Shown here piece after piece: positions 4,485 to 46,366 of a stretch of 58,631 nucleotides of DNA. Location of the stretch: contig JANYCJ010000025.1 in the NCBI GenBank assembly GCA_025360345.1, positions 1 through 58,631 on the forward strand, read 5' to 3'. Source of the stretch: Alphaproteobacteria bacterium. Lineage in GTDB: Bacteria; Pseudomonadota; Alphaproteobacteria; Rickettsiales; SXRF01. The translations under genes and the position numbers were made by a program. Position 1 is the first letter of the stretch. Each line of letters opens with the position of its first letter. The notes under the pieces are model-generated. The model was not told the origin of the DNA and did no database searches. It was given only the letters and a program-made list of their open reading frames with translations.

Positions 4485-4946
4485 ATGACCCAGCTCCCCT
4501 ACCGCGACGGCGTCGGCATCATGCTGCTCAATGCCCAAAACCTTGTCTTCGTCGCCAAGCGCATCGACATGCGCTCCGAAGCATGGCAAATGCCGCAAGG
4601 AGGCATGGACAAGGGTGAAACCCCCACCCAGTCCGCCCTGCGTGAATTAAAGGAAGAAACCGGCACCGGCAAAGCCGAAATCCTGCAGGAAAGCAAAGGC
4701 TGGCTCACCTATGATTTGCCCCCCGAGCTCATCCCCATCATCTGGGGCGGCAAATACCGCGGCCAGAAGCAGAAATGGTTTGCCATGCGCTTCACCGGCA
4801 AGGACTCCGACATCAACATCCAGACCGAACACCCCGAATTCTGCGAATGGAAATGGGTGCCCATGCACGCCCTGCCGGACATCATCGTCCCCTTCAAACG
4901 CGCGCTTTACTCGCAGATCGTCGAAGAATTCAAAAACCTTATTTAG
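4485..4946 (+). CDS. rppH: RNA pyrophosphohydrolase (Nudix)
   Basis: Nudix box: QMPQGGMDKGETPTQSALRELKEETG. The RppH-like C-terminal part reads GQKQKWFAMRF...EFCEWKWV. Confidence 0.9.
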   Translation: MTQLPYRDGVGIMLLNAQNLVFVAKRIDMRSEAWQMPQGGMDKGETPTQSALRELKEETGTGKAEILQESKGWLTYDLPPELIPIIWGGKYRGQKQKWFAMRFTGKDSDINIQTEHPEFCEWKWVPMHALPDIIVPFKRALYSQIVEEFKNLI

Positions 4947-5355
4947 TTTTCAGCAGATCGCGGATTTCTTCCAGCAGCATTTCCTGCTTGCTCACCGGCG
5001 GCGCGGCCTTCACCTCCGCCTCTTGCTTCACCATCAGCTTGTTCACCTGCCGCACCATCACGAACACCGCAAAGGCCACGATCAGGAAATTAATGACCTG
5101 GTTAAGGAACACGCCGTAATTGACGGTCGCCGCCCCCGCCGCCTGCGCTTCTTTAAGCGTGTCGTAATGCGTGTGCGACAGGTTGATATACAGGCTCGAA
5201 AAATCCAGCCCCCCTGTAATCATGCCAATCGGCGGCATGATGATGTCCTTCACCAGCGAGTTCACAATCCCCGTAAACGCCGCCCCCATGATAATCCCCA
5301 CCGCAAGGTCCATCACATTACCGCGGGCGATGAACTTCTTGAATTCCTGCAACAT
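4939..5355 (-). CDS. mscL: Large-conductance mechanosensitive channel
   Basis: MLQEFKKFIARGNVMDLAVGIIMGAAFTGIV is the canonical MscL N-terminus. The ATG at 5355 is preceded by GGAGG with a 5-nt spacer. The track ORF opens at a GTG at 5367. Confidence 0.93.
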   Translation of the reverse strand: MLQEFKKFIARGNVMDLAVGIIMGAAFTGIVNSLVKDIIMPPIGMITGGLDFSSLYINLSHTHYDTLKEAQAAGAATVNYGVFLNQVINFLIVAFAVFVMVRQVNKLMVKQEAEVKAAPPVSKQEMLLEEIRDLLKTK

Positions 5356-5412
5356 GACTGCCTCCACAAGTGATAAAACACCCAGAGGTTGTACTGCGCC
5401 AATCCCCGCCGC

Positions 5413-6588
5413 TCAATCCATTTTTAGTAAAACACCCTTAAGATATTCATTCTGTGGCAACCTCGGATGCAGCGGGTGGTCAATCCCCGCCGAGGTTTGC
5501 TGCACGATGCGGGGCGAAAACCCCGCCTTCTTCGCGCCTGCCATCACCGCGTTGCTAAACGCCCCCCGGCTGGCGTAATGCGAGCAGGAGGCCGTAAAAA
5601 ACAGCCCCCCCGGCTTGCACAGCCCCGCCGCCAGCCGCGCCACCTTCTCATAGCCGCGCATCCCCGCCGCAATGTCCTTCTTGCTCTTCACAAATGCCGG
5701 CGGGTCGGCCAGCACAATATCGTACCGCTTCCCCTCCGCCGCCAGCCGCTCCATCACCGCGAACGCATCGCCCTGCACGCATTCCACCGCCACCGCGTTG
5801 CGCTCGGCTGTCCTGCCCGCCAGCTCCAGCGCCAGCTTCGAACTGTCCACGCACACCGCTTGCGCCGCCCCGGCCTTGGCCGCCAGCACCCCAAACCCGC
5901 CCGAATGGGAATAAATATCCATCACGCTCTTGCCCTTGCACAACCCCGCAATCAGCGCCCGGTTGTCCCGCTGGTCAAAAAACCACCCCGTCTTCTGCCC
6001 TTTCAGCACATCGGCGAAATAGGTGCAGCCGTTCTCCTCCAGCTCCACCAGCCCGGAAACCTCGCCCTTAAGGATGCTCACCCCTTGCGCAAGCCCCTCG
6101 CGCAACCGCGCCCCCGTATCGTTCCTGAGCACAATCGCCCGTGGCCCGATCACCGCCTCCACCGCCTCCAGCCACGCAGGCATCAGCCGGTCCATCCCCG
6201 CCGTGCCGCTTTGCGCCACCAGCACGTCGCCAAAGCGGTCAAGCAGCAACCCGGGCAGGAAATCCCCTTCCGAATGCGCAAGGCGGTAAAAAGGCACCCC
6301 AATGGCTTTCTCGCGTATCGTCAGCGCCCGCCGCAACCTCTGGGCAAACCACTCGGCATCCACCACCGCCTTTCCCAGCGCCAGCACCCGGCACGCAATC
6401 TGCGAGGCCGCGTTATAATACCCCACCCCGATAAACTGCCCCCGCGCCGACTCAATGTCCACCAGCGCACCCGCGGGCACGCCCAGAAGCTCGGAAGACT
6501 CGATAATATCCCCCGCGTAAATCCACGGCATCCCGCCCCGCACCGCCTCTTCGCATGTCTTCTTGATGCGCACCGGGCAGAGGCTCAT
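5413..6588 (-). CDS. rlmI: Class I SAM-dependent rRNA methyltransferase with a PUA-like N-terminal domain (RlmI family)
   Basis: Motifs: VMDIYSHSGGFGVLAA (SAM-binding) and VLADPPAFVKSKKD. The ATG at 6588 overlaps the upstream stop (ATGA). The ORF opens at 6675. Confidence 0.85.
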   Translation of the reverse strand: MSLCPVRIKKTCEEAVRGGMPWIYAGDIIESSELLGVPAGALVDIESARGQFIGVGYYNAASQIACRVLALGKAVVDAEWFAQRLRRALTIREKAIGVPFYRLAHSEGDFLPGLLLDRFGDVLVAQSGTAGMDRLMPAWLEAVEAVIGPRAIVLRNDTGARLREGLAQGVSILKGEVSGLVELEENGCTYFADVLKGQKTGWFFDQRDNRALIAGLCKGKSVMDIYSHSGGFGVLAAKAGAAQAVCVDSSKLALELAGRTAERNAVAVECVQGDAFAVMERLAAEGKRYDIVLADPPAFVKSKKDIAAGMRGYEKVARLAAGLCKPGGLFFTASCSHYASRGAFSNAVMAGAKKAGFSPRIVQQTSAGIDHPLHPRLPQNEYLKGVLLKMD

Positions 6589-7325
6589 ACCCCGTCCCCG
6601 AACACCATCTCCCCGGCCAGGAACTCCATCACCAGAAATATCGTGAAACTCACCGCCGAAATCCCCATCCAGCAATGCACCCAGAAAATTTCCTTATGGT
6701 TGGTTAAATCCGCCAGCCCCCGGCCGTCCCACACCTGCAGCAGCGCCGGCGAATCATATTCCGGGTAAGCATAAAACAAATACGGGTCCAGGCCGCCCCC
6801 GATAATCAGGTATACCGAAAGGAACTTCACCGCCCAGTACATCTGCTTGTCAGAATCCAGCCGCCCGATGGACTGGAACACCGCCATCACGAACACGACA
6901 ATCCCGATGGTCCTGATATCGCGCGCCCATAAGAGAATGCTGGCCCCCGCAATCCCCATGCAGATATAGGGCACCCACTCGATCCGGTCGCTCAGCCAGC
7001 GCGCAAACGCCGTGTAGATCAATAGCCCCCAGATGCTCGGCGCCATATACCCGCCAAACAGCGTCACTTCGTCGCCGAACATCCGCGTGCCGTCGGTATG
7101 CGCAAGCCCGCCCTGCCCGAAGGCCAGTTCTATCTGGTAAAAATGCCCGCCCGAAAGCAGCGCCGCAATGCCATGCCCCATCTCGTGGAAATACACCCGT
7201 ATCATGCTGATCGGGATATCGGCATAGGAGAGCCACGCCTGCTCCGTCACCATGCTCGTCTGCAGCGCCAGCACCAGCGCGATGATAATGAAAAGGTCGA
7301 CCCGTGCCCGAAGGAACGAGAACAT
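6585..7325 (-). CDS. Polytopic membrane protein, M50B-type zinc metallopeptidase-like
   Basis: About 6 hydrophobic segments. An HExxH motif sits in the first TM region in an M50B-like context: YFHEMGHGIAALLSGGHF...GGYMAPSIWG. Confidence 0.7.
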   Translation of the reverse strand: MFSFLRARVDLFIIIALVLALQTSMVTEQAWLSYADIPISMIRVYFHEMGHGIAALLSGGHFYQIELAFGQGGLAHTDGTRMFGDEVTLFGGYMAPSIWGLLIYTAFARWLSDRIEWVPYICMGIAGASILLWARDIRTIGIVVFVMAVFQSIGRLDSDKQMYWAVKFLSVYLIIGGGLDPYLFYAYPEYDSPALLQVWDGRGLADLTNHKEIFWVHCWMGISAVSFTIFLVMEFLAGEMVFGDGV

Positions 7326-31643: not shown

Positions 31644-32726
31644 TCAGGCCAGCCGCTTGCCCAGCGCCTGCGCGCGGCTTTCAACCTGCCGGTGAAACAC
31701 CTCGGCCACGCCCAGCATCACCGGCAGCGCCAGCGCCACGATCACACCTTCCGGCAATAGCCCGTGCAGGCCGTAAAGCATCGCCAGCAATACCGGCAAA
31801 TGCGTCAGGTACAGGCTGAAAGAAACCTTGCCCAGCCATAGCGGCGCACGGCGCATCAGCAGCGCATCCACCGCCCCCAGCACCTGCACGCTGAAAATGA
31901 GATACAGCGCAAAAACCCCGAAATACACGTCATTCACCGTGAAATGCGCCTCTACCAGCCGCGCCGGCAGCAGGAAAAACACCCCGAAAATCACCCCATG
32001 CCCCCACACCGGCACGCGCTGCAACTGCCGGATGATGACATCCCGGCACAGCGCCGCCTTCGCCCCCAGATAAAAAAACGGCACATAATACAGCGTCAGC
32101 AGCAAAGCCCCCGCGCCAGACTGGCCCACATAGAAATTCGCCTGCCCGTCCATCATCACAAAAAGCTTCGCCGCTACGAACCCAAGGCCGAAAACCGCGC
32201 CCGCGCTCCACAGCGGCAGCCGCAGCGCCACCCACACCAGCAAGGGGAAAAATAAGGAAATCCGTATCTCGTAAATCAGGCTCCAGATCGGCGGGTTGAG
32301 CGAAATACTGCCCATGCCCACGCCCTGCATCAGCATATGCGAAGCCACCAGCCCCGGGCTCACCATGAACGACCAGTCCGTCTCCCCTTGCGCCCATTCC
32401 GGCTGCGGCGAGCTGAAAATGCTGGCAAGCACTGCCGCCATCCCCACCGCCACCACGAACGGCAGGTAAATCCGGCACATCCTGCGGATAAAATACTGCC
32501 GGTAAGCCTGCGCCTTCCCCGCCCGGTAAGGCAGTGCCAGCACAAACCCGCTCAGCACGAAAAACAGCACCACCGCAAACCGCCCGGAAACCAGCCAGTG
32601 CAGCGGCGTCCACGCCATCAGCCCTTGTGTTTGCGCCTTGAACGCCGGGGCCACGTCATAAAAATGGTTGAGCACCACTACAAATGCCGCGATCCCCCTC
32701 ACCGAATCAAGGCTGGGAATCCGCAT
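31644..32726 (-). CDS. Acyltransferase family 3 membrane protein (OafA/YrhL-like)
   Basis: MRIPSLDSVRGIAAFVVVLNHF is the typical Acyl_transf_3 N-terminus. About 10 TM segments. Confidence 0.88.
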   Translation of the reverse strand: MRIPSLDSVRGIAAFVVVLNHFYDVAPAFKAQTQGLMAWTPLHWLVSGRFAVVLFFVLSGFVLALPYRAGKAQAYRQYFIRRMCRIYLPFVVAVGMAAVLASIFSSPQPEWAQGETDWSFMVSPGLVASHMLMQGVGMGSISLNPPIWSLIYEIRISLFFPLLVWVALRLPLWSAGAVFGLGFVAAKLFVMMDGQANFYVGQSGAGALLLTLYYVPFFYLGAKAALCRDVIIRQLQRVPVWGHGVIFGVFFLLPARLVEAHFTVNDVYFGVFALYLIFSVQVLGAVDALLMRRAPLWLGKVSFSLYLTHLPVLLAMLYGLHGLLPEGVIVALALPVMLGVAEVFHRQVESRAQALGKRLA

Positions 32727-32759
32727 GTCAGGCCGCGCCGCGCAAGGCCGGTTCAGCGC

Positions 32760-33713
32760 TCATGCGCTTTCCAGTTCGCCCAGCACGCCCATCAGCTCGC
32801 GGTATTCACCCTTGCTCATGCCGCTTTGCTCCTGCGTCACGCTTTCCCCCGCGATCATGCGCTTGATCACGGCCAGCCCCTTGGCCGAGAGCGCCGCCCC
32901 GCCCATGCGGTAATCCATGAATGCCTGATAGGTAATCGGCACCCATGCCTTGAGGATATCCAGCATCACCTCGGCATAGACCCGGATCTCATACTGCGCA
33001 TGAGGGTCTGCCCGCAAAGAAAGGAAATGCAGCAAATTCTGCAAATCAATCTTCCAGTACCACTGCGTGTAGAAATTCACCGGCAAATTCATGCGCGCCA
33101 GCTCCCGCGCCAGCCCGGTCTTGTCGCCATCCAGCACCGTGCCCTGCTCGTCGGCGTTCAGCAGCTCTTCGTAATGCTTATAGGCCTGCATGGAATCCTG
33201 CTTCAGTATCTCCAGCGCCCGCGCTGCTTCCGCACCTTCCAGCACACCCCCGCGGCCTTGCCGGTTCGAGGTGGACTGCGCCGCCAGATGCTCTGGCTGC
33301 GGCACGTAAAATTCCTTGTCCATGATCGAATAGCGCCCGGAATATTCGTTCACATTGGCCGTGCGGTGGCGTATCCATTGCCGCGCCACGAAAATCGGCA
33401 GCTTGATATGGAATTTGATCTCGCACATTTCAAACGGCGTGGTATGGCGGTGGCGCATCAGGTAGTTGATAAGCCCCGCATCCTCGTTCACCTTGCGCGT
33501 GCCACGGCCATAAGACACCCGTGCCGCCTGCACAATGGCGCTGTCCGTGCCCATATAATCCACCACCCGCACAAACCCGTGGTCAAGCACCGGCATGGCC
33601 TTGTAAAGCACCTCCTCCAGCGCCGGGGCCACGTCCCGCCGAGAGGGGCTTTGCACTTGGCGCAGTGCTTCAATTTCAATGGCTTGTTGTTCGGTCAATG
33701 GCATAGGGCGCAC
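32760..33713 (-). CDS. thyX: FAD-dependent thymidylate synthase
   Basis: ThyX signature [15 protein letters not shown] (RHRxxSxNxxSxRY-type), together with the surrounding helices. Confidence 0.93.
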
Positions 33714-33888
33714 CTTGGCAAGGGTGAAAGCGGAATAGGTTAATATAGCTCTTATGGCAAACCCCGGCCTGAAAGTCTATCCCGATCCAACCTTACCATG
33801 ATAACAAAACATAGCCTTGCCACCTCACACGCATCTGCCTCAATAGGCGCGCTTCCTTCAAAAACCTGCTGAAAATGCGCCTTACCCC

Positions 33889-33917
33889 TTCACAAACCCG
33901 ATGAAAGCGCATATATT
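33889..33917 (+). promoter_or_regulatory. Putative sigma70-type promoter of ssrA
   Basis: TTCACA (33889-33894), a 17-nt spacer, then TATATT (33912-33917). The predicted transcript start near 33925 gives an acceptor piece of about 79 nt. Confidence 0.4.
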
Positions 33918-33924
33918 AGAGGCG

Positions 33925-34290
33925 TTACTTCGGTAACTATGGTGATAAACGTAAGTCAGAATAAGCGGATTGGACCCGGGGGCAGTACCCGGCGCCTCCA
34001 CCATTTGCAAACCACGCCGCCTTGTTGTCAAAGCGCTGTGGGAATTATGGGGGCGAATCAGGCTCGACAGACGTAATAAAAGGCTTATTTTTACCCGGGA
34101 TGATTCCGTCGATATCGGATCACAATTGTAAATGCCAACGACAACGTTGCATTTGTTGCCGCTAACGACAACACAGTCGTAGCAGTTCGTGCTGCAGCCT
34201 AACGGCGAGCACGCGCTCTAGCGCGTAACTCGGCCCGGGGAGTGCCGGGAAACAGAAACTCCCCACCTATCATCCGGGCGCACTCCCTTT
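33925..34290 (+). ncRNA. ssrA: Circularly permuted (two-piece) tmRNA: acceptor piece about 33925-34003, coding piece about 34049-34290
   Basis: The 3' acceptor strand CGCCUCC-A-CCA (33993-34003), with T-arm CCGGG/CCCGG (33976-33992), lies UPSTREAM of the 5' acceptor strand GGGGGCG (34049-34055). Pairing them gives a 7-bp stem with the G3:U wobble required by AlaRS. The tag ORF GCC AAC GAC AAC ... GCA GCC TAA (34134-34202) encodes ANDNVAFVAANDNTVVAVRAAA. A post-stop hairpin and a pseudoknot-like pairing GGGAGUGC/GCACUCCC follow, the latter ending at 34287. The RNA ends are approximate. Confidence 0.85.
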
Positions 34291-39243: not shown

Positions 39244-40626
39244 TCAATGTCGGAACAGCGACCCCGGCGGCTGCGCGCTGCGCGTGGCCTTATGCACGGC
39301 GTCAAATTCCTCCAGCGCCATCAGCTCGGCTATTTTCCCGTCGCATTTGGTGCGGTATAGCGCCACCAGCTTTTCCATCACCGCGTCTTCTTGCACCTGG
39401 TCTTTATATTGCAGCCCGTAATTCGCCTCCTGCAGCGCAATCTCCTGCAGGGTTTCGCGCAAATCCTTAAGCGTGCTGCGGTCACGCTCGCTCCAGCGGA
39501 ATTTGGCATCTTTCTCCGGTCGCAGCATCAGCTTGTGGCTGCCCGTCATCAGCCGCGTCGTCACCCCCGGCCTTTCAATATCGGCGCCCTTCATGGCAAA
39601 CCGCCCGCTTTCCAGCACCTTCGCGTAATCCTGCTCCAGCGGCGCCACGTAATGCTCTTTCACGAAAGCCCCCAGCTCGGGAAACGCCACCTCCATCAGC
39701 TTGCGCCCCGCCGTATCGCGCAGCCGGTCATGGGTCAGGCTGCCCACCAGCTCTTCATAAAGCGGTATCAGCTCCGCCCGCTTTGCCTCTGGCGTGGGAT
39801 ACATGTCCTCAGGTAATTGCCTGAGCGCCTCCATGCGGTTTACCACCCGCCCCAGCACCGCCACGGGGTCATAGAACACCGTGTCCGCCTGTGCGCCCAC
39901 AATCTCCACCCATCCCCGCCACTGCGCCACGAAATCCCGCTGTTCCTGCGTCATCTGGTCTGGGTGGTGTATTTTGTGGTAGGTGTCCAAAAGCCATGCC
40001 TGCTGTTCCTGCACCCTCTCAAGCAACCCGTCCGGCAGCCGGTCTGAAATGCCGCCCTTGGCAAGGTCGTAGGCATGTACCATCTCGTGCAGCGTCGTCT
40101 TGCTTTTTTTCTGGTCAGGGCCATGCGCCACGATCACTGTGGCGTAATCAGGCAGGATCGCCCCGCGATGCCTCGTGCTGGCCCCATCCAGCCCGCCGAT
40201 GATATCCTCGTCCGGGCAGATCAGCATCCGCAGTTTCTGGCCGTCCTTGCAGCCCTGCGCATAGAGCACCGCCGCCTCCGGCTCGCGTGCCGCCAGCGCC
40301 GCGGCGCCTTGCAGCATTGCCCGCTCCGGCCTGCTGTAATGGAATGCCAGCTCCCCGCCCCGCCTGTCCACCAGCGCCTTTTTCACGTCGCGGATCAGCG
40401 CCATCGTGCTTGCGCGGCTCAGGTAATGTTTTTGGGTAAGCGTCTTTTCCAGCGCTTGCGCGCGCCCGTCAAACGCATCCACCGGGAAAATCTGCGCGAC
40501 CTGCTTCCCATTATTGGCTACGCCCATACTCCAGCTGCGGTCATGATACAGCACCACGCTGTCGCGGTGGAACACCGCGTCGCCCAGCAATGCGCTTAGC
40601 AACGTGCCCGATTGTTTTTCAACCAT
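39244..40626 (-). CDS. Hypothetical protein with an HExxH zincin-like motif
   Basis: A 460-aa ORF with host-like codon bias. HEMVH lies in the context KSKTTLHEMVHAYDLAKG. It has no signal peptide or TM segment. I recognise no family. Confidence 0.65.
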   Translation of the reverse strand: MVEKQSGTLLSALLGDAVFHRDSVVLYHDRSWSMGVANNGKQVAQIFPVDAFDGRAQALEKTLTQKHYLSRASTMALIRDVKKALVDRRGGELAFHYSRPERAMLQGAAALAAREPEAAVLYAQGCKDGQKLRMLICPDEDIIGGLDGASTRHRGAILPDYATVIVAHGPDQKKSKTTLHEMVHAYDLAKGGISDRLPDGLLERVQEQQAWLLDTYHKIHHPDQMTQEQRDFVAQWRGWVEIVGAQADTVFYDPVAVLGRVVNRMEALRQLPEDMYPTPEAKRAELIPLYEELVGSLTHDRLRDTAGRKLMEVAFPELGAFVKEHYVAPLEQDYAKVLESGRFAMKGADIERPGVTTRLMTGSHKLMLRPEKDAKFRWSERDRSTLKDLRETLQEIALQEANYGLQYKDQVQEDAVMEKLVALYRTKCDGKIAELMALEEFDAVHKATRSAQPPGSLFRH

Positions 40627-40710
40627 ATTTCCATGGTATCAGAAATATGTTACAATATTATGTACTAGTTTATTATTACATAACAACAGCTTATCCGGGC
40701 TGCGGCAGAG

Positions 40711-40956
40711 CTAAACCTTGATATTGACCGGTGCATAGGCGCTGGCGGGCTTACCTGCATTTTGCCCGCTTGCCTGCCCCGTCGGCTGGATCAGCCCGGG
40801 CTTATGTTTCTTGTCCCCGTCCTGCGAAAGCCCCAGCAAAGATGCGAAATCCACACTCTGCGTATCTTTCTTCGTTGGCGTCACGTTCGATGCGGTTTTC
40901 GAATACGCGCCCACCTGCGATGCCGCGCCAATGCCCGATGTGCTGCAACTGCTCAT
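40711..40956 (-). CDS. Hypothetical small S/G/T/K-rich (likely disordered) protein
   Basis: The ATG at 40956 is preceded by AGGAG with a 5-nt spacer. The track opens at a TTG at 40971. Its low complexity keeps coding status uncertain. Confidence 0.4.
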   Translation of the reverse strand: MSSCSTSGIGAASQVGAYSKTASNVTPTKKDTQSVDFASLLGLSQDGDKKHKPGLIQPTGQASGQNAGKPASAYAPVNIKV

Positions 40957-42508: not shown

Positions 42509-43588
42509 ATGACCGACACCGATGACTTCATCAACCCCATGGGCACCGACGGCTTCGAGTTCGTCGAATATGCAGCGCAAGACCCCGCCGCGCTGGAAGC
42601 CCTGTTCACCCGGCTCGGCTTCAGCAAAATCGCCCGCCACCGCTCCAAGAATGTCGGCCTCTGGCGGCAGGGCGACATCAACTTCATCCTCAACGCCGAA
42701 AAAGACAGCCACGCCGCGGGATTTTTTTACGCCCACGGCCTCTCCGCAAACGCCATGGCCTTCCGCGTCAAGTCCGTCGCCAAAGCCCTGCAACGTGCCA
42801 AAGACTTAGGCCTTGAAATCATCGCCTCCAAGGTCGGCCCTATGGAGCTGAATATCCCCGCCATCGTCGGCATCGGCGGCAGCCTACTCTACCTCGTGGA
42901 AAAATCCGGCCCCTTTAGCATTTACGATGTGGATTTCGTCCCCCTCGAAGGCGTAAACCAGCACCCCGTGGGCTGCGGCCTCACCCATATCGACCACCTC
43001 ACCCACAACGTCTACCGCGGCAACATGGGCACATGGGCGGAGTTCTACGAGCGCATCTTCAACTTCCGCGAAATCCGCTATTTCGATATCGAAGGCAAGC
43101 TCACCGGCCTCAAATCCAAGGCCATGACCTCCCCCTGCGGCAAAATCCGCATCCCCATCAACGAATCATCCGACGACAAGTCCCAGATCGAGGAATACCT
43201 GCGCGAATACAAGGGCGAAGGCATCCAGCACATCGCGCTGGCCACCGCCGATATTTACAACACCGTCGAATCCCTGAAGCACAACCACATCACCTTCATG
43301 GACCCGCCTCCTTCCACCTATTACGAGCGCATCGACACCCGCCTCTGCGGCCACGGCGAAGACATCGCCCGCCTGCGCAAAAACGGCATCCTGATCGACG
43401 GTGCGCCCGAATCCGCCCCCGGCAGGCACGATGGCGGCATCCTGCTGCAAATTTTCACCAGCACCGTCATCGGCCCCATCTTCTACGAAATCATCCAGCG
43501 CAAGGGCGACGAAGGCTTCGGCGAAGGCAACTTCCGCGCCCTTTTCGAATCCATCGAAGAAGACCAGGTCAAGCGCGGCGTGCTTTGA
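42509..43588 (+). CDS. hppD: 4-hydroxyphenylpyruvate dioxygenase
   Basis: GFEFVEY, GEGIQHIALATADIY and the canonical C-terminus FYEIIQRKGDEGFGEGNFRALFESIE. Confidence 0.96.
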   Translation: MTDTDDFINPMGTDGFEFVEYAAQDPAALEALFTRLGFSKIARHRSKNVGLWRQGDINFILNAEKDSHAAGFFYAHGLSANAMAFRVKSVAKALQRAKDLGLEIIASKVGPMELNIPAIVGIGGSLLYLVEKSGPFSIYDVDFVPLEGVNQHPVGCGLTHIDHLTHNVYRGNMGTWAEFYERIFNFREIRYFDIEGKLTGLKSKAMTSPCGKIRIPINESSDDKSQIEEYLREYKGEGIQHIALATADIYNTVESLKHNHITFMDPPPSTYYERIDTRLCGHGEDIARLRKNGILIDGAPESAPGRHDGGILLQIFTSTVIGPIFYEIIQRKGDEGFGEGNFRALFESIEEDQVKRGVL

Positions 43589-43591
43589 TCT

Positions 43592-43798
43592 ATGACTGAA
43601 AGCGAACCAAATTACTTAGAGAAATGCAGAAAAAACAACATTTGCCCAACCTGTCAAAATACTATCACACAGAAGGTGGGCAAAGGAAATCTCGAGGAGG
43701 GTGTTTTTTGCTCTTTGAGCTGCTACACAGAATGGAACAAAGTTCTTTTAATAAAAAGACATCAGGAAAGGCTTAAGGATAATAATAAAGATGGCTGA
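43592..43798 (+). CDS. Small zinc-ribbon-like protein (CPTC...CSLSC) with a basic tail; low GC
   Basis: The 68-aa ORF starts 3 nt after the hppD stop and overlaps the next gene by 8 nt. It has four Cys in a CxxC/CxxxC arrangement. Its composition matches the downstream gene, not the host. Confidence 0.55.
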   Translation: MTESEPNYLEKCRKNNICPTCQNTITQKVGKGNLEEGVFCSLSCYTEWNKVLLIKRHQERLKDNNKDG

Positions 43799-44999
43799 AG
43801 TAGTGCGACTAGATATATCCGATAGTAACAACCTAGAAACGCCGTCTAAGGCTGTTTATACTGGCATTCTACCATGTCAAAAAATTCGAGAGATGATTTT
43901 TAATAAGGAAATCAGCGCAATATTTTCAGAAATTGAAGAAGATCAAATCCAGCCGGCTAGTATAGATCTTAGGTTGGGTGATTATGCGTATCCTGTGCAA
44001 ACTAGCTTCCTACCGGGCAAAGGTGTAAAGGTAATGGATAAAATGAAACAGCTAGATCACGATTTTGATAAATTTAAAATCGACCTAACTGTTAAAGACG
44101 GCGCTATCCTTGAGCGCGACAAGGTTTACGTTATACCACTATTAGAAGCTATAAATTTAAAAAGCGAAGTAGCAGCTTTTGCCAACCCCAAAAGCTCCAC
44201 AGGTCGCCTAGATATCCTTACTAGGTTGATAGCAGATGGCTGTTCTGTTTTTGACCAATTAGATGAGGGTTATGTTGGTCAATTATATATAGAAGTTGCT
44301 CCAAAAAGCTTTAGTATTGTTGCTAGAAAAGGAGACCGTCTTAATCAATTACGATTTAGACGAGCAAGAGGGGAAACCCCTAAATCAATTCCAGCCCATA
44401 TTTGGAGTCAGTTACTAGCTGAAAATCGCATAGTGAAAGATCTAGATGCTGCTAATATGGAAGTACTATCTAGAAAAAGCGAACTCCCATTTACAGTAGA
44501 TTTACAGGGAAGCGGTGCCGATTCTATCGTAGGTTGGCGAGCTAAGAAGCATACCAAACGCATTGACCTAAAAAACAGAAATTATAACCCTTATGAATTT
44601 TGGGAACCTATAATTGCAAATAAAGAAAAGACTCTAGTATTAGAGCCTGATCAATTCTATATTTTGATGACAAAAGAATCGATTGCAGTTCCTAAAGACT
44701 TTGCGGCAGAAATGCTTCCGTATGACACAAGGGCGGGAGAATTTCGAGTTCACTACGCGGGATTTTTCGATCCCGGCTTCGGGATCGATGAGAACACTCA
44801 AAAAGCGGGATCTAGTCGAGGCGTTCTAGAAGTACGCTCACATGAAGTTCCTTTTCTCCTGGAGCATGGACAGATAGTAGGATGGCTAAAATACGAATAT
44901 ATGGCAGCCCCGCCCGATACTTTATATGGCACTGATGCGTCATCTAACTATCAAGGACAGGGGCTTAAACTTGCCAAACAATTTTGTTTCAAAGTCTAG
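43791..44999 (+). CDS. Long (two-domain) 2'-deoxycytidine 5'-triphosphate deaminase family protein; low GC
   Basis: Two Dcd/dUTPase-fold halves are present. The first has QPASIDLRLGDYAY, NPKSSTGRLDI and LYIEV. The second has AEMLPYDTRAGEFRVHYAGFFDPGFG and GVLEVRSHEVPF. About 40% G+C. Confidence 0.85.
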   Translation: MAEVVRLDISDSNNLETPSKAVYTGILPCQKIREMIFNKEISAIFSEIEEDQIQPASIDLRLGDYAYPVQTSFLPGKGVKVMDKMKQLDHDFDKFKIDLTVKDGAILERDKVYVIPLLEAINLKSEVAAFANPKSSTGRLDILTRLIADGCSVFDQLDEGYVGQLYIEVAPKSFSIVARKGDRLNQLRFRRARGETPKSIPAHIWSQLLAENRIVKDLDAANMEVLSRKSELPFTVDLQGSGADSIVGWRAKKHTKRIDLKNRNYNPYEFWEPIIANKEKTLVLEPDQFYILMTKESIAVPKDFAAEMLPYDTRAGEFRVHYAGFFDPGFGIDENTQKAGSSRGVLEVRSHEVPFLLEHGQIVGWLKYEYMAAPPDTLYGTDASSNYQGQGLKLAKQFCFKV

Positions 45000-45241
45000 G
45001 CCGCCTGTTTCTTGAGGATCGCAAACAGCGCATCCTTCAGCTTCAGCCGTTCCTTCTTGGCATTTTCCATCACCACGTCCGAAACCGTTTCCAGCTCGTC
45101 TTCCATGCGCGACACCTGCTCGGTCACGGCGGTGTATTCCTTATACAGCTTGGCAAAATGCGCGTCTTCCTGCTTCAGCTGTGAAATGCGCTCCTTATAT
45201 TCGGGAAATTCATGCACCAGCTCGTGGGTCTCATTAAACAT
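44996..45241 (-). CDS. DUF465 (YdcH-like) coiled-coil protein
   Basis: HELVHEFPEYKERISQLKQEDAHFAKLYKEY...RLKLKD is the typical DUF465 pattern. Length 81 aa. Confidence 0.85.
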   Translation of the reverse strand: MFNETHELVHEFPEYKERISQLKQEDAHFAKLYKEYTAVTEQVSRMEDELETVSDVVMENAKKERLKLKDALFAILKKQAA

Positions 45242-45310: not shown

Positions 45311-46366
45311 TTACAGCAGCGCCTCCGCAATCGTGGCATAGGCGCTGGCATAAGCCCCGTCATACACATGCGCTTCCTCCGCCGACTGGCCGATGAACGG
45401 GTCGATAGGCACCTCGCCGAGGAACGCCACCCCCGCTTCCTGCGCAAGCTTCCTGCCGCCGCCTTCGCCAAACAGCGCAATCTGCTTTCCCGTCGCCGGT
45501 TCCACGAAATAGCTCATATTCTCCACCACTCCCAGCACCGGCACGTTGAGCTTCATAAACATCTTCATGCATTTGCGCGCATCCATCACCGCCACCTCCT
45601 GCGGCGTGGTCACGATCACCGCGCCCGCCATGGGCACCTGCTGCATCATGCTCAAGTGAATATCTCCCGTGCCCGGCGGCATGTCCACCAGCAGCAGGTC
45701 AAGCTTGCCGTGCTGCCCCCACCGCGTGAACCGCAGCAGCTGGTGCAGCGTCTTGGAAATCATCGGCCCGCGCAGCATCGCCGCCTCCTCGCCGGTGATA
45801 AAGCCCATGCTCATGCACTCCACCCCGTGCGCCGCGGGCGGCACCATCTTGCCCTCCACAATCGGCGGCTGCCCGGAAAGCCCCAGCATCCGCGGCAGCG
45901 AAGGCCCGTAAATATCCGCGTCCAGCAGCCCCACCCGCTTGCCCGCTTTTGCCAGCGCCAGCGCCAAATTCAGCGCCGTGGTCGATTTGCCCACGCCGCC
46001 CTTGCCGCTCGCCACCGCGATCACCTTAAAAACATTTTCCACCGGCGTCAGGTTCCACACCGCTCTGTCGCGCGGCTGCGAATAGCCCGCTTCCGGCTTC
46101 GGCGGAATCTTTCCGCTCGCCTGCGCCGTCATCACCGCCGTCACGCTCACCACGCCCGGCAGTTTCGTCACCGCCGCTTCACACTGCTCGCGCAGCCGCG
46201 CCATATCGTCTTTGAACGCTGTGTCGATGGTCAGCACAAACCCCACCTTGCCCTCGCGCACCACCACGCCGGAAATCATCCCGGCCGACATCACGTCGCG
46301 CCCCGACTGCGGGTCGCTGACGGTGCTAAGTGCCAATTTAACGGAATCTGCGGTAAGTGATGACAT
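45311..46366 (-). CDS. apbC: Iron-sulfur cluster carrier ATPase (Mrp/NBP35 family)
   Basis: N-terminal MIP18-like domain, deviant Walker A ASGKGGVGKSTTALNLA, and a CxxC-region equivalent. Confidence 0.93.
   Translation of the reverse strand: MSSLTADSVKLALSTVSDPQSGRDVMSAGMISGVVVREGKVGFVLTIDTAFKDDMARLREQCEAAVTKLPGVVSVTAVMTAQASGKIPPKPEAGYSQPRDRAVWNLTPVENVFKVIAVASGKGGVGKSTTALNLALALAKAGKRVGLLDADIYGPSLPRMLGLSGQPPIVEGKMVPPAAHGVECMSMGFITGEEAAMLRGPMISKTLHQLLRFTRWGQHGKLDLLLVDMPPGTGDIHLSMMQQVPMAGAVIVTTPQEVAVMDARKCMKMFMKLNVPVLGVVENMSYFVEPATGKQIALFGEGGGRKLAQEAGVAFLGEVPIDPFIGQSAEEAHVYDGAYASAYATIAEALL

Follow-up and report, generated by a model that had tools for sequence, protein, structure and literature searches.

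A low-G+C cassette in an alphaproteobacterial genome pairs a long two-domain dCTP deaminase with a conserved, zinc-finger-like microprotein gene

Described systems and the cassette

Deoxycytidine triphosphate (dCTP) deaminase (Dcd) is a textbook enzyme of deoxythymidine triphosphate (dTTP) synthesis. Here we describe a two-gene cassette at positions 43589-44999 of a 58,631-nucleotide (nt) contig (JANYCJ010000025.1, assembly GCA_025360345.1; this whole stretch is the window referred to below), in which the gene for a long, two-domain Dcd of 402 amino acids (aa) is preceded and overlapped by the gene for a 68-aa predicted zinc-finger protein, named ORF68 after its open reading frame (ORF). The enzyme is known; what is new is the conserved ORF68 family and its fixed partnership with an enzyme of the deoxynucleoside triphosphate (dNTP) pool, of which no description was found.

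A literature search returned no functional studies of the long form of Dcd, and no protein partner of a dCTP deaminase was described in the literature searched. The full-length domain architecture and the invariant motifs of the PRK07559 family, to which the structure 2R9Q belongs, are common to the window Dcd. By sequence, however, the window Dcd groups with beta/gamma-type enzymes, whereas 2R9Q falls in the alphaproteobacterial group, which is approximately 45-48 % identical to it. Compared to the 2R9Q-type enzymes, the window Dcd is also longer at its N-terminus by a segment of about 20 residues, and its gene is preceded by a dedicated zinc-finger gene that 2R9Q-type genes generally lack.

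For the small protein the nearest described relatives are the zf-FCS (PF06467), TRASH and eL24 fingers, with which ORF68 shares the pattern C-P-x-C...G-x-G...G-x-F-C-S-x-x-C, while the acidic N-terminal and basic C-terminal helices are specific to the ORF68 family. Escherichia coli YacG, a small CPxC...FCSxxC protein, inhibits DNA gyrase by binding GyrB. ORF68 presumably resembles YacG in being a small stand-alone protein with a helical tail, but unlike eL24 and YacG, with their links to the ribosome and gyrase, it has a nucleotide-metabolism enzyme as its genomic partner. In arrangement the cassette also recalls type II toxin-antitoxin operons, in which a small upstream gene overlaps a larger one and which are mobile, AT-rich and often located in flexible regions, as is ORF68-dcd. 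On the other hand, ORF68 is not a known antitoxin fold, and dcd stays intact when ORF68 decays and widely exists without it.

A defensive dCTP deaminase has been described by Tal et al. (bioRxiv 10.1101/2021.04.26.441389) as a single protein of 576 aa, in which an N-terminal kinase domain is joined to a cytidine-deaminase domain that depends on zinc. The predicted chemistry, deamination of dCTP, is common to that protein and the window pair, and some of the pairs adjoin defence systems. In contrast to the defensive enzyme, the window Dcd has a dUTPase-like fold, in which Pfam finds no cytidine-deaminase-fold domain, it has no kinase domain, and the predicted zinc site is on a separate 68-aa protein. 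The window pair fits no PADLOC model and showed none of the features tested for membership. The first-pass annotation, made from the sequence alone, was therefore right in stating that the described defence deaminase is of a different type.

The enzyme, the microprotein and their pairing

The cassette fits exactly between the hppD gene and a DUF465 gene, as read directly from the sequence, and its parts are as follows.

43592-43798, plus strand: ORF68, predicted 68-aa zinc-finger microprotein of an unannotated family
43625-43723, plus strand: predicted zinc-finger core of ORF68, C12...C18-P-x-C21...G30-x-G32...G37-V-F-C40-S-L-x-C44 (from alignment A1)
43791-43798, plus strand: junction ATGGCTGA, in which the ORF68 stop overlaps the dcd start by 8 nt; translational-coupling junction
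43791-44999, plus strand: dcd, 402-aa long two-domain dCTP deaminase of the PRK07559 family
43860-44366, plus strand: N-terminal Dcd-like half, residues 24-192 (Pfam DCD_N and TIGR02274)
44457-44984, plus strand: C-terminal Dcd-like half, residues 223-398 (Pfam DCD_C)

There is no slack at either end. The hppD gene ends in TGA and a 3-nt spacer, TCT, separates this stop from the ORF68 start; a purine-rich AAGGA is present at 43775-43779, upstream of the dcd start; and the TAG of dcd (44997-44999) shares 2 nt with the stop of the DUF465 gene, which is convergent. All coordinates given for this zero-slack fit in the first-pass annotation were confirmed.

Judged by its domain matches, the 402-aa protein clearly belongs to the family of long, two-domain dCTP deaminases, in agreement with its first reading as a double Dcd of dUTPase-like fold. 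It matches the NCBIfam equivalog NF005734/PRK07559 at 462.3 bits (cut-off 283) over residues 21-399, Pfam DCD_N at 211.6 bits (cut-off 21.4; 8e-63) over residues 24-192, Pfam DCD_C at 250 bits (cut-off 22; 1.5e-74) over residues 223-398, and the PDB entry 2R9Q, a structural-genomics entry from Agrobacterium tumefaciens, at E = 6e-102. The motifs taken as invariant are the invariant columns of an alignment of ten family members (A2). In the N-terminal half these are NPKSSTGRLD (44184-44213) and Glu168 of YIEV (44292-44294), and in the C-terminal half HYAGFFDPGFG (44751-44783) and VLEVRSHE (44823-44846). All four, which are of active-site type, are present in the 402-aa protein and also align with 2R9Q. 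The two halves appear to differ in which of the canonical Dcd motifs they keep, as would be expected of a fused pseudo-dimer. 2R9Q is the only solved structure of a long Dcd and features in protein-peptide docking benchmarks, where the entry has a peptide of 9 residues (chain Y) on its chain B. The site may be a surface for peptide binding and, as such, of relevance to a small partner.

An exhaustive HMMER search of 1.84 billion representative sequences returned 67 representative homologues of ORF68 (E<=1e-3), of which the best are mostly 65-75 aa long and the top ones 55 % identical end to end. A word-indexed homologue search had given no match, a false negative in view of the HMMER result. 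All database copies carry the label 'hypothetical', and ORF68 reaches the threshold of no Pfam, NCBIfam, PADLOC or PHROG family. In the alignment of 27 sequences (A1) C18, P19, C21, C40 and C44 are invariant and C12, G30, G32, G37, F39 and S41 nearly so, further supporting the zinc-finger-like character noted at first sight. The cysteine pattern, C18-P-T-C21 followed after 18 residues by F39-C40-S-L-S-C44, is that of the class CxxC...~18-22 residues...(F)CSxxC. With the acidic N-terminal helix (MAExEExYL) and the conserved basic C-terminal helix (LLIRRHQ-R-QK), the family can be recognised by the signature MAExEExYL-x2-C-x5-CPxC-x8-GxG-x4-GvFCSLxC. The ratio of non-synonymous to synonymous substitution rates (dN/dS), calculated over codons outside the dcd overlap, was 0.05-0.34, which indicates that ORF68 is a translated protein under purifying selection. 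At the loci of two further top-ranking Dcd homologues, gene callers missed an intact ORF68 homologue at ~1170-1376 of L208 and a decayed one at ~306-500 of L209, and the family is thus under-annotated in public assemblies.

The predicted fold class of ORF68 is an FCS/TRASH/eL24-type zinc finger, although by threshold it belongs to no curated family. Its own best Pfam matches reach 11.9-15.5 bits against cut-offs of 25-30, and sub-threshold matches to zf-FCS, DUF7576 and zf-C6H2/MYND-like families recur in 5-7 of the 27 members, zf-FCS matching six of them with a best, still sub-threshold, E of 0.0019. When the profile was compared with PDB sequences, the best matches, all below threshold (E about 0.2-0.4), were eL24 (E 0.16-0.43), in register over CxxC...GxG...DG...FCSxxC, and the MYM-type finger of ZMYM5. 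A Foldseek search of PDB with the AlphaFold2 model of ORF68 (pLDDT 76.8) gave nothing at E<=0.001, the top entries being MYND fingers, eL24 and a bacterial metallothionein. Both the zf-FCS and the TRASH cut-off are exceeded by P0155, a distant relative with several fingers and, in addition, an HNH endonuclease domain. Together with P0159 and P0177 it represents ORF68-domain proteins in which 2-5 tandem FCS/TRASH fingers are fused to such a domain.

ORF68 was found directly upstream of a long Dcd gene in 20 of 21 distinct loci, nearly always with the same overlap; the co-occurrence suggested for checking was thus confirmed, with the overlap conserved. When individual family members were looked up, eight out of eight had this position. 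Besides the window, 14 distinct loci have the -8 overlap, ATGnnTGA, and two more have a -4 overlap, ATGA. An unbiased set was obtained by an alignment-based scan of metagenome contigs for long Dcds, which succeeded where a scan with a single Dcd sequence had found nothing, and a hidden Markov model of ORF68 was applied to the DNA upstream of the resulting 80 loci. In loci with a Dcd at least 59 % identical to that of the window and with readable upstream DNA, ORF68 was present in 8 of 13, compared to approximately 2 of 66 loci with a more distant Dcd. Of 30 viral contigs, none had ORF68. The pairwise identities of ORF68 and Dcd correlate (Spearman 0.76; 78 pairs from 13 unique loci). Since pairs reach down to 40-46 % Dcd identity (L094, L089), the association is an old one, and the two genes are inherited together.

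The pairing is not without losses. In a neighbour-joining tree of Dcd the clade is mostly paired, with unpaired members scattered through it, and unpaired orthologues exist that are 65-74 % identical to the window Dcd. In L209 ORF68 has decayed (C12Y, C40Y and a frameshift) and in L107 its N-terminal half is lost; at both loci the neighbouring dcd is full length.

Some apparent variants of the pair were discarded. Long proteins with an ORF68 domain, considered as fusions with Dcd, were gene-call extensions or multi-finger HNH nucleases, and one of them, P0172, has no Dcd domain; a long ORF in L099 was a stop-to-stop artefact. L096 and L097, which could have been one cassette in two contexts, are the same locus (99.9 % identity). 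ORF68 represents a previously unannotated protein family, the dedicated partner of one branch of long Dcd.

Foreign composition and origin of the cassette

The genes around the cassette, and two features further upstream that bear on the host and on nucleotide metabolism, are listed below.

42509-43588, plus strand: hppD, 4-hydroxyphenylpyruvate dioxygenase, host gene on the left flank (Pfam Glyoxalase_5/HPPD_N 9e-52)
44996-45241, minus strand: DUF465 gene, host gene on the right flank (Pfam DUF465 1.8e-11)
45311-46366, minus strand: mrp/apbC-type ATPase, host gene (tblastn synteny in L001 and L002)
32760-33713, minus strand: thyX, flavin-dependent thymidylate synthase, 317 aa (RHR...SGRY signature; phrog_85 thymidylate synthase 6e-68)
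33885-34267, plus strand: full-length, two-piece (permuted) alphaproteobacterial transfer-messenger RNA (tmRNA) (Rfam RF01849 alpha_tmRNA, 229.9 bits, gathering score 50)

The G+C content of the cassette is 0.398, compared to 0.601 in the remaining window. This is about 6 standard deviations (SD) under the mean of same-size windows (0.596 +/- 0.033), and the cassette is the sole deep trough in 58.6 kb. At third codon positions (GC3) the values are 0.305 for dcd and 0.406 for ORF68, the six flanking genes having 0.71-0.82 (~0.78), and the tetranucleotide distance of the cassette is 0.72 against 0.277 +/- 0.062, 7 SD out. All these tests agree with the foreign composition first suggested by counting letters. 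The signal sits in GC3 while GC1 and GC2 resemble those of the host, and the composition is therefore one of foreign codon usage rather than an effect of amino-acid composition. The sharpness of the bounds, also claimed at first, holds for the codon signal, since hppD (GC3 0.81) and the DUF465 gene (GC3 0.71) are host-like right up to their stops. In raw G+C the right edge is softer: the DUF465 gene and its upstream spacer have 0.40-0.53, and 0.6 is regained near 45350. A second, mild dip (0.51-0.52) was seen at ~40400-40850 of the window, approximately 3 kb upstream of the cassette.

A switch of composition as abrupt as this, in a window with no tRNA, no meaningful flanking direct or inverted repeats and no integrase as signatures of mobility, could also come from a chimeric assembly, with ORF68 as a chance ORF in AT-rich DNA. 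We consider such an artefact extremely improbable. Each boundary coincides with a stop codon to within 3 nt, and none of the four ORFs is disrupted; the homologues of ORF68 form 67 clusters, its cysteines are invariant and it is under purifying selection; and many independent assemblies show the same gene order and overlap.

The host is an alphaproteobacterium, as the full-length alpha_tmRNA at 33885-34267 establishes. This RNA, which was missed by ARAGORN and detected by Rfam, is located approximately 170 nt from thyX and explains a minor G+C dip near 33701. A 468-aa ORF on the plus strand at 32337-33743 is a high-G+C shadow ORF antisense to thyX and was rejected; the real gene is the minus-strand one for the 317-aa ThyX, whose presence at these coordinates, as first reported, was confirmed. 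Thousands of metagenomic proteins have 64-74 % identity to the window Dcd, and those with a name come from Steroidobacteraceae, Sulfuricella, Gallionellaceae and Burkholderiales. The window Dcd shares only 45-48 % identity with typical alphaproteobacterial long Dcds (replicons of Paracoccus, Sinorhizobium and Bosea).

Syntenic relatives were sought among species representatives, a set in which the host genome itself is not included. The nearest loci were L001, from a metagenome-assembled genome labelled 'Rickettsiales' (hppD 78 % identical), and L002 (hppD 75 %), and in both the gene order phhA-(GNAT)-hppD ... (DUF465)-mrp-hflK is kept. Neither dcd nor ORF68 is present at the hppD-DUF465/mrp junction of L001 or L002. 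Instead, this junction contains ORFs of 234 and 200 aa in L001 (11199-12690) and an ORF of 233 aa in L002 (6073-6774), none of them with a Pfam or PADLOC match. The hppD-(DUF465)-mrp junction thus looks like a small gene-turnover hotspot, variable in the host lineage. Together with the composition data this variability makes a recent acquisition of the cassette by horizontal transfer well supported, and the window cassette as such is an ordinary, very clean case of horizontal transfer. That the genes are what they are taken to be, that the pairing is conserved and that the cassette was transferred we hold jointly to be practically certain.

Carriage of the cassette by a phage or plasmid was rejected, as the viral and plasmid sets gave no supporting matches. 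INPHARED contained no long Dcd, plasmid matches were limited to alphaproteobacterial chromids at 45-48 % identity, and ORF68 was absent from IMG/VR (scanned with a single protein) and from PHROGs. Some IMG/VR contigs classed as viral (L178-L187) do carry relatives of the long two-domain Dcd at 35-60 % identity, several of them at contig ends, without ORF68.

It is also possible that the cassette replaced a native dcd in place, by xenologous displacement at an ancestral hppD-dcd-(DUF465)-mrp site, perhaps anchored by the 3' end of hppD. The gene families flanking the cassette, hppD and mrp, also adjoin unpaired dcd genes, which may mean such a replacement. The closest Dcd homologue (P0001, 74 % identical and the sister branch in the tree) is encoded within 1-1333 of L081, a contig of 65 % G+C, 16 nt downstream of hppD and without ORF68, an adjacency of hppD and dcd like that in the window. 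Three unpaired clade members (L101, L105 and L108) adjoin mrp/apbC, the right neighbour of the window cassette beyond DUF465. The last 87 nt of hppD are ~87 % identical in DNA even across distant taxa and could anchor recombination at the stop codon. This identity was also considered as a sign that L081 is near the host and proved uninformative, unrelated Vogesella loci having the same 87 %. Against replacement in place, L001 and L002 have unrelated cargo and no dcd at the junction, the flanks are host-like in GC3 to their stops, so that no crossover took place inside either flanking gene, and the basis for the idea is one hppD case and three mrp cases. On balance we find replacement in place somewhat doubtful.

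Function of the pair

The best overall explanation, in which we have moderate confidence, is that the cassette is a recently acquired, mobile, metabolic dcd operon of two genes with a zinc-finger accessory or regulatory partner. The long Dcd would convert dCTP to deoxyuridine triphosphate (dUTP), or to the monophosphate dUMP, and its product would feed thymidylate synthesis, in this host via ThyX. The 58.6 kb of the host covered here contained no second dcd, dut or dCMP deaminase gene, as judged with approximate probes (E. coli Dut and Dcd). There is no promoter space between the hppD stop and the ORF68 start 3 nt later, a scan of the cassette region for promoters and terminators gave nothing above chance level, and the convergent stops overlap. 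ORF68-dcd is for these reasons probably expressed as the tail of the hppD transcript. A ribosome ending ORF68 could reinitiate on dcd, so that both proteins would be made at a fixed ratio, and ORF68 would most likely bind the deaminase as a regulatory or stabilising subunit and, less likely, the nucleic acid of the operon. The direct partnership of the two proteins is put forward tentatively, as a possibility that falls somewhat short of an even chance. A metabolic role of the pair is fairly probable.

That the role is metabolic rather than defensive is suggested by the lack of a PADLOC match, the core-genome neighbours, the decay of ORF68 beside an intact dcd, the unpaired orthologues that adjoin mrp or hppD, and the presence of thyX in the window. 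The contexts of the paired loci are not syntenic and most are core genome, the neighbours being rnr-rlmB (L099), mutS (L092, L106), uvrB (L107), gatC (L089), HAD hydrolases (L085, L104) and metabolic genes (L094). The neighbours in the window are likewise housekeeping genes.

Several results weigh against a purely metabolic operon with a protein partner. No natural fusion of ORF68 and Dcd was found among the long proteins carrying an ORF68 domain. FCS- and eL24-type fingers also bind RNA, so that the partner of ORF68 could be a nucleic acid. For a housekeeping gene, a place after hppD is hard to explain physiologically. The AT shift is not specific to the window: of 14 paired loci, 13 have a cassette poorer in G+C than its flanks (mean -0.052, p = 6e-4), compared to a mean difference of +0.013 at 50 other long Dcd loci (Mann-Whitney p = 7e-6). 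Finally, 3-4 of ~14 paired contexts are associated with defence genes. As to the AT shift, the unpaired members of the clade have a difference of -0.045, similar to that of the paired ones, with the window extreme at -0.198. This is consistent with a Dcd branch that has repeatedly been transferred laterally from donors of lower G+C to hosts of higher G+C.

Defence association was judged over the ~14 paired loci with usable flanks, PADLOC being run on part of the neighbours. It is strong at L096, L102 and L103, and L092, from the metagenome-assembled genome GCA_040384345.1, has an ambiguous kinase. L096 is a mobile, defence-rich island: the gene next after dcd is for a PD-T4-6/mad6-like kinase (6e-40), and GmrSD/Orf5 (1e-42), PDC-M19B (5e-59), Mrr, HNH, a recombinase and transposases are also present. 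L102 has PDC-M11A (5e-88) and PDC-M30B/M41B (3e-100). At L103 the B (1.7e-143) and C (7e-53) components of PD-Lambda-2 lie approximately 460 nt downstream of the pair; the system at 4596-7192 looks complete, its A component possibly being the 92-aa ORF at 4596-4871. The kinase next door at L092 is of PD-T4-6 type, and PADLOC matches to kinase domains are generic. A Ser/Thr kinase as third component of the cassette was rejected, as the kinases of L092 and L096 share 29 % identity and none is found at other loci. Small genes of toxin or antitoxin type (PIN, VbhA domain, HI1420-downstream antidote) adjoin some other pairs. The seven unpaired loci within the clade, of which four were scanned with PADLOC, L082 was judged by Pfam labels alone and the others are mrp-adjacent, have 0-1 defence neighbour, a generic reverse transcriptase (L100). 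The association of the pairs with defence genes is thus above what would be expected for a housekeeping gene, and far below that which defines a defence family. The question raised at first, whether such pairs are located in defence islands, has accordingly a divided answer: some are beside defence systems, and most are in the core genome.

These neighbours give some weight to an anti-phage or addiction module acting by nucleotide depletion, in which Dcd as effector would drain dCTP or flood the cell with dUTP and the zinc finger would gate it until infection. In addition to the strong PADLOC neighbours of L096, L102 and L103, the kinase beside L092 and the toxin- or antitoxin-type genes at other pairs, the mobility and AT shift of the cassette in its hosts, the resemblance of a small upstream gene overlapping a larger one to a toxin/antitoxin pair, and the proven use of dCTP deamination for defence by an enzyme of another fold all speak for it. 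Nevertheless, we regard a defence module as unlikely. Most contexts are core genes, and the neighbourhood in the window is housekeeping. Neither ORF68 nor Dcd had a PADLOC match, in the window or in L096. The adjacent kinases are unrelated beyond their fold and non-recurrent, and their PADLOC matches are generic. Unpaired orthologues, some of them beside mrp or hppD, share 65-74 % identity with the enzyme, those beside mrp without ORF68 being 65-67 % identical, and ORF68 has twice decayed beside an intact dcd. That an intact dcd can outlast ORF68 weakens the idea in its toxin/antitoxin form; an activator or sensor form is still conceivable. In a more specific version, an FCS-type finger would restrain or switch on a dUTPase-fold Dcd, and the pair would be a nucleotide-pool weapon or addiction module acting against phages via a collapse of dCTP or raised dUTP. 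It would have spread as a two-gene cassette among proteobacteria, convergent with, and unrelated to, the defensive deaminases composed of a kinase and a cytidine deaminase. That version, too, seems to us distinctly unlikely. The undescribed defence variant suggested in the first-pass annotation is accordingly not favoured, and its more sober alternative, a horizontally acquired metabolic dcd, fits better; that alternative did not foresee the conserved, undescribed partner family.

It is also conceivable that ORF68 is a small RNA- or DNA-binding autoregulator that tunes dcd expression, the coupling merely linking the two syntheses. In sequence and fold, ORF68 comes closest to the finger of eL24, which binds RNA, and to FCS or MYND-like 'mRNA-binding' fingers. 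Its conserved C-terminal helix, LLIRRHQ-R-QK, is basic, the repetition of the domain in distant relatives and its fusion to HNH nucleases suggest recognition of nucleic acid, and ORF68 is dispensable in several lineages. However, every fold-class match is sub-threshold, and MYND fingers, like some FCS fingers, are modules that bind proteins. A protein partner fits the strict 1:1 coupling and the correlated divergence of ORF68 and Dcd at least equally well. Moreover, the upstream regions differ among loci, and no conserved operator or RNA element was seen, none having been searched for. An autoregulatory role thus seems improbable, and a metabolic dcd operon with a zinc finger that may bind the enzyme is still preferred.

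There is no evidence that the ORF68-dcd pair is itself a defence system, despite its occasional anti-phage neighbours. For annotation, the results provide a small-protein family that is new, can be recognised by a simple signature and has a fixed partner in the genome. For the family of long, fused Dcd enzymes, they mean that one branch carries a dedicated, translationally coupled predicted zinc-finger microprotein. As a mobile, AT-shifted pair that is occasionally found in defence islands, ORF68-dcd is a candidate for another mechanism of phage defence based on dCTP, structurally unrelated to the first. Should the finger regulate the enzyme, it would be a new control point on bacterial dNTP pools and a clean example of a microprotein as an enzyme subunit.

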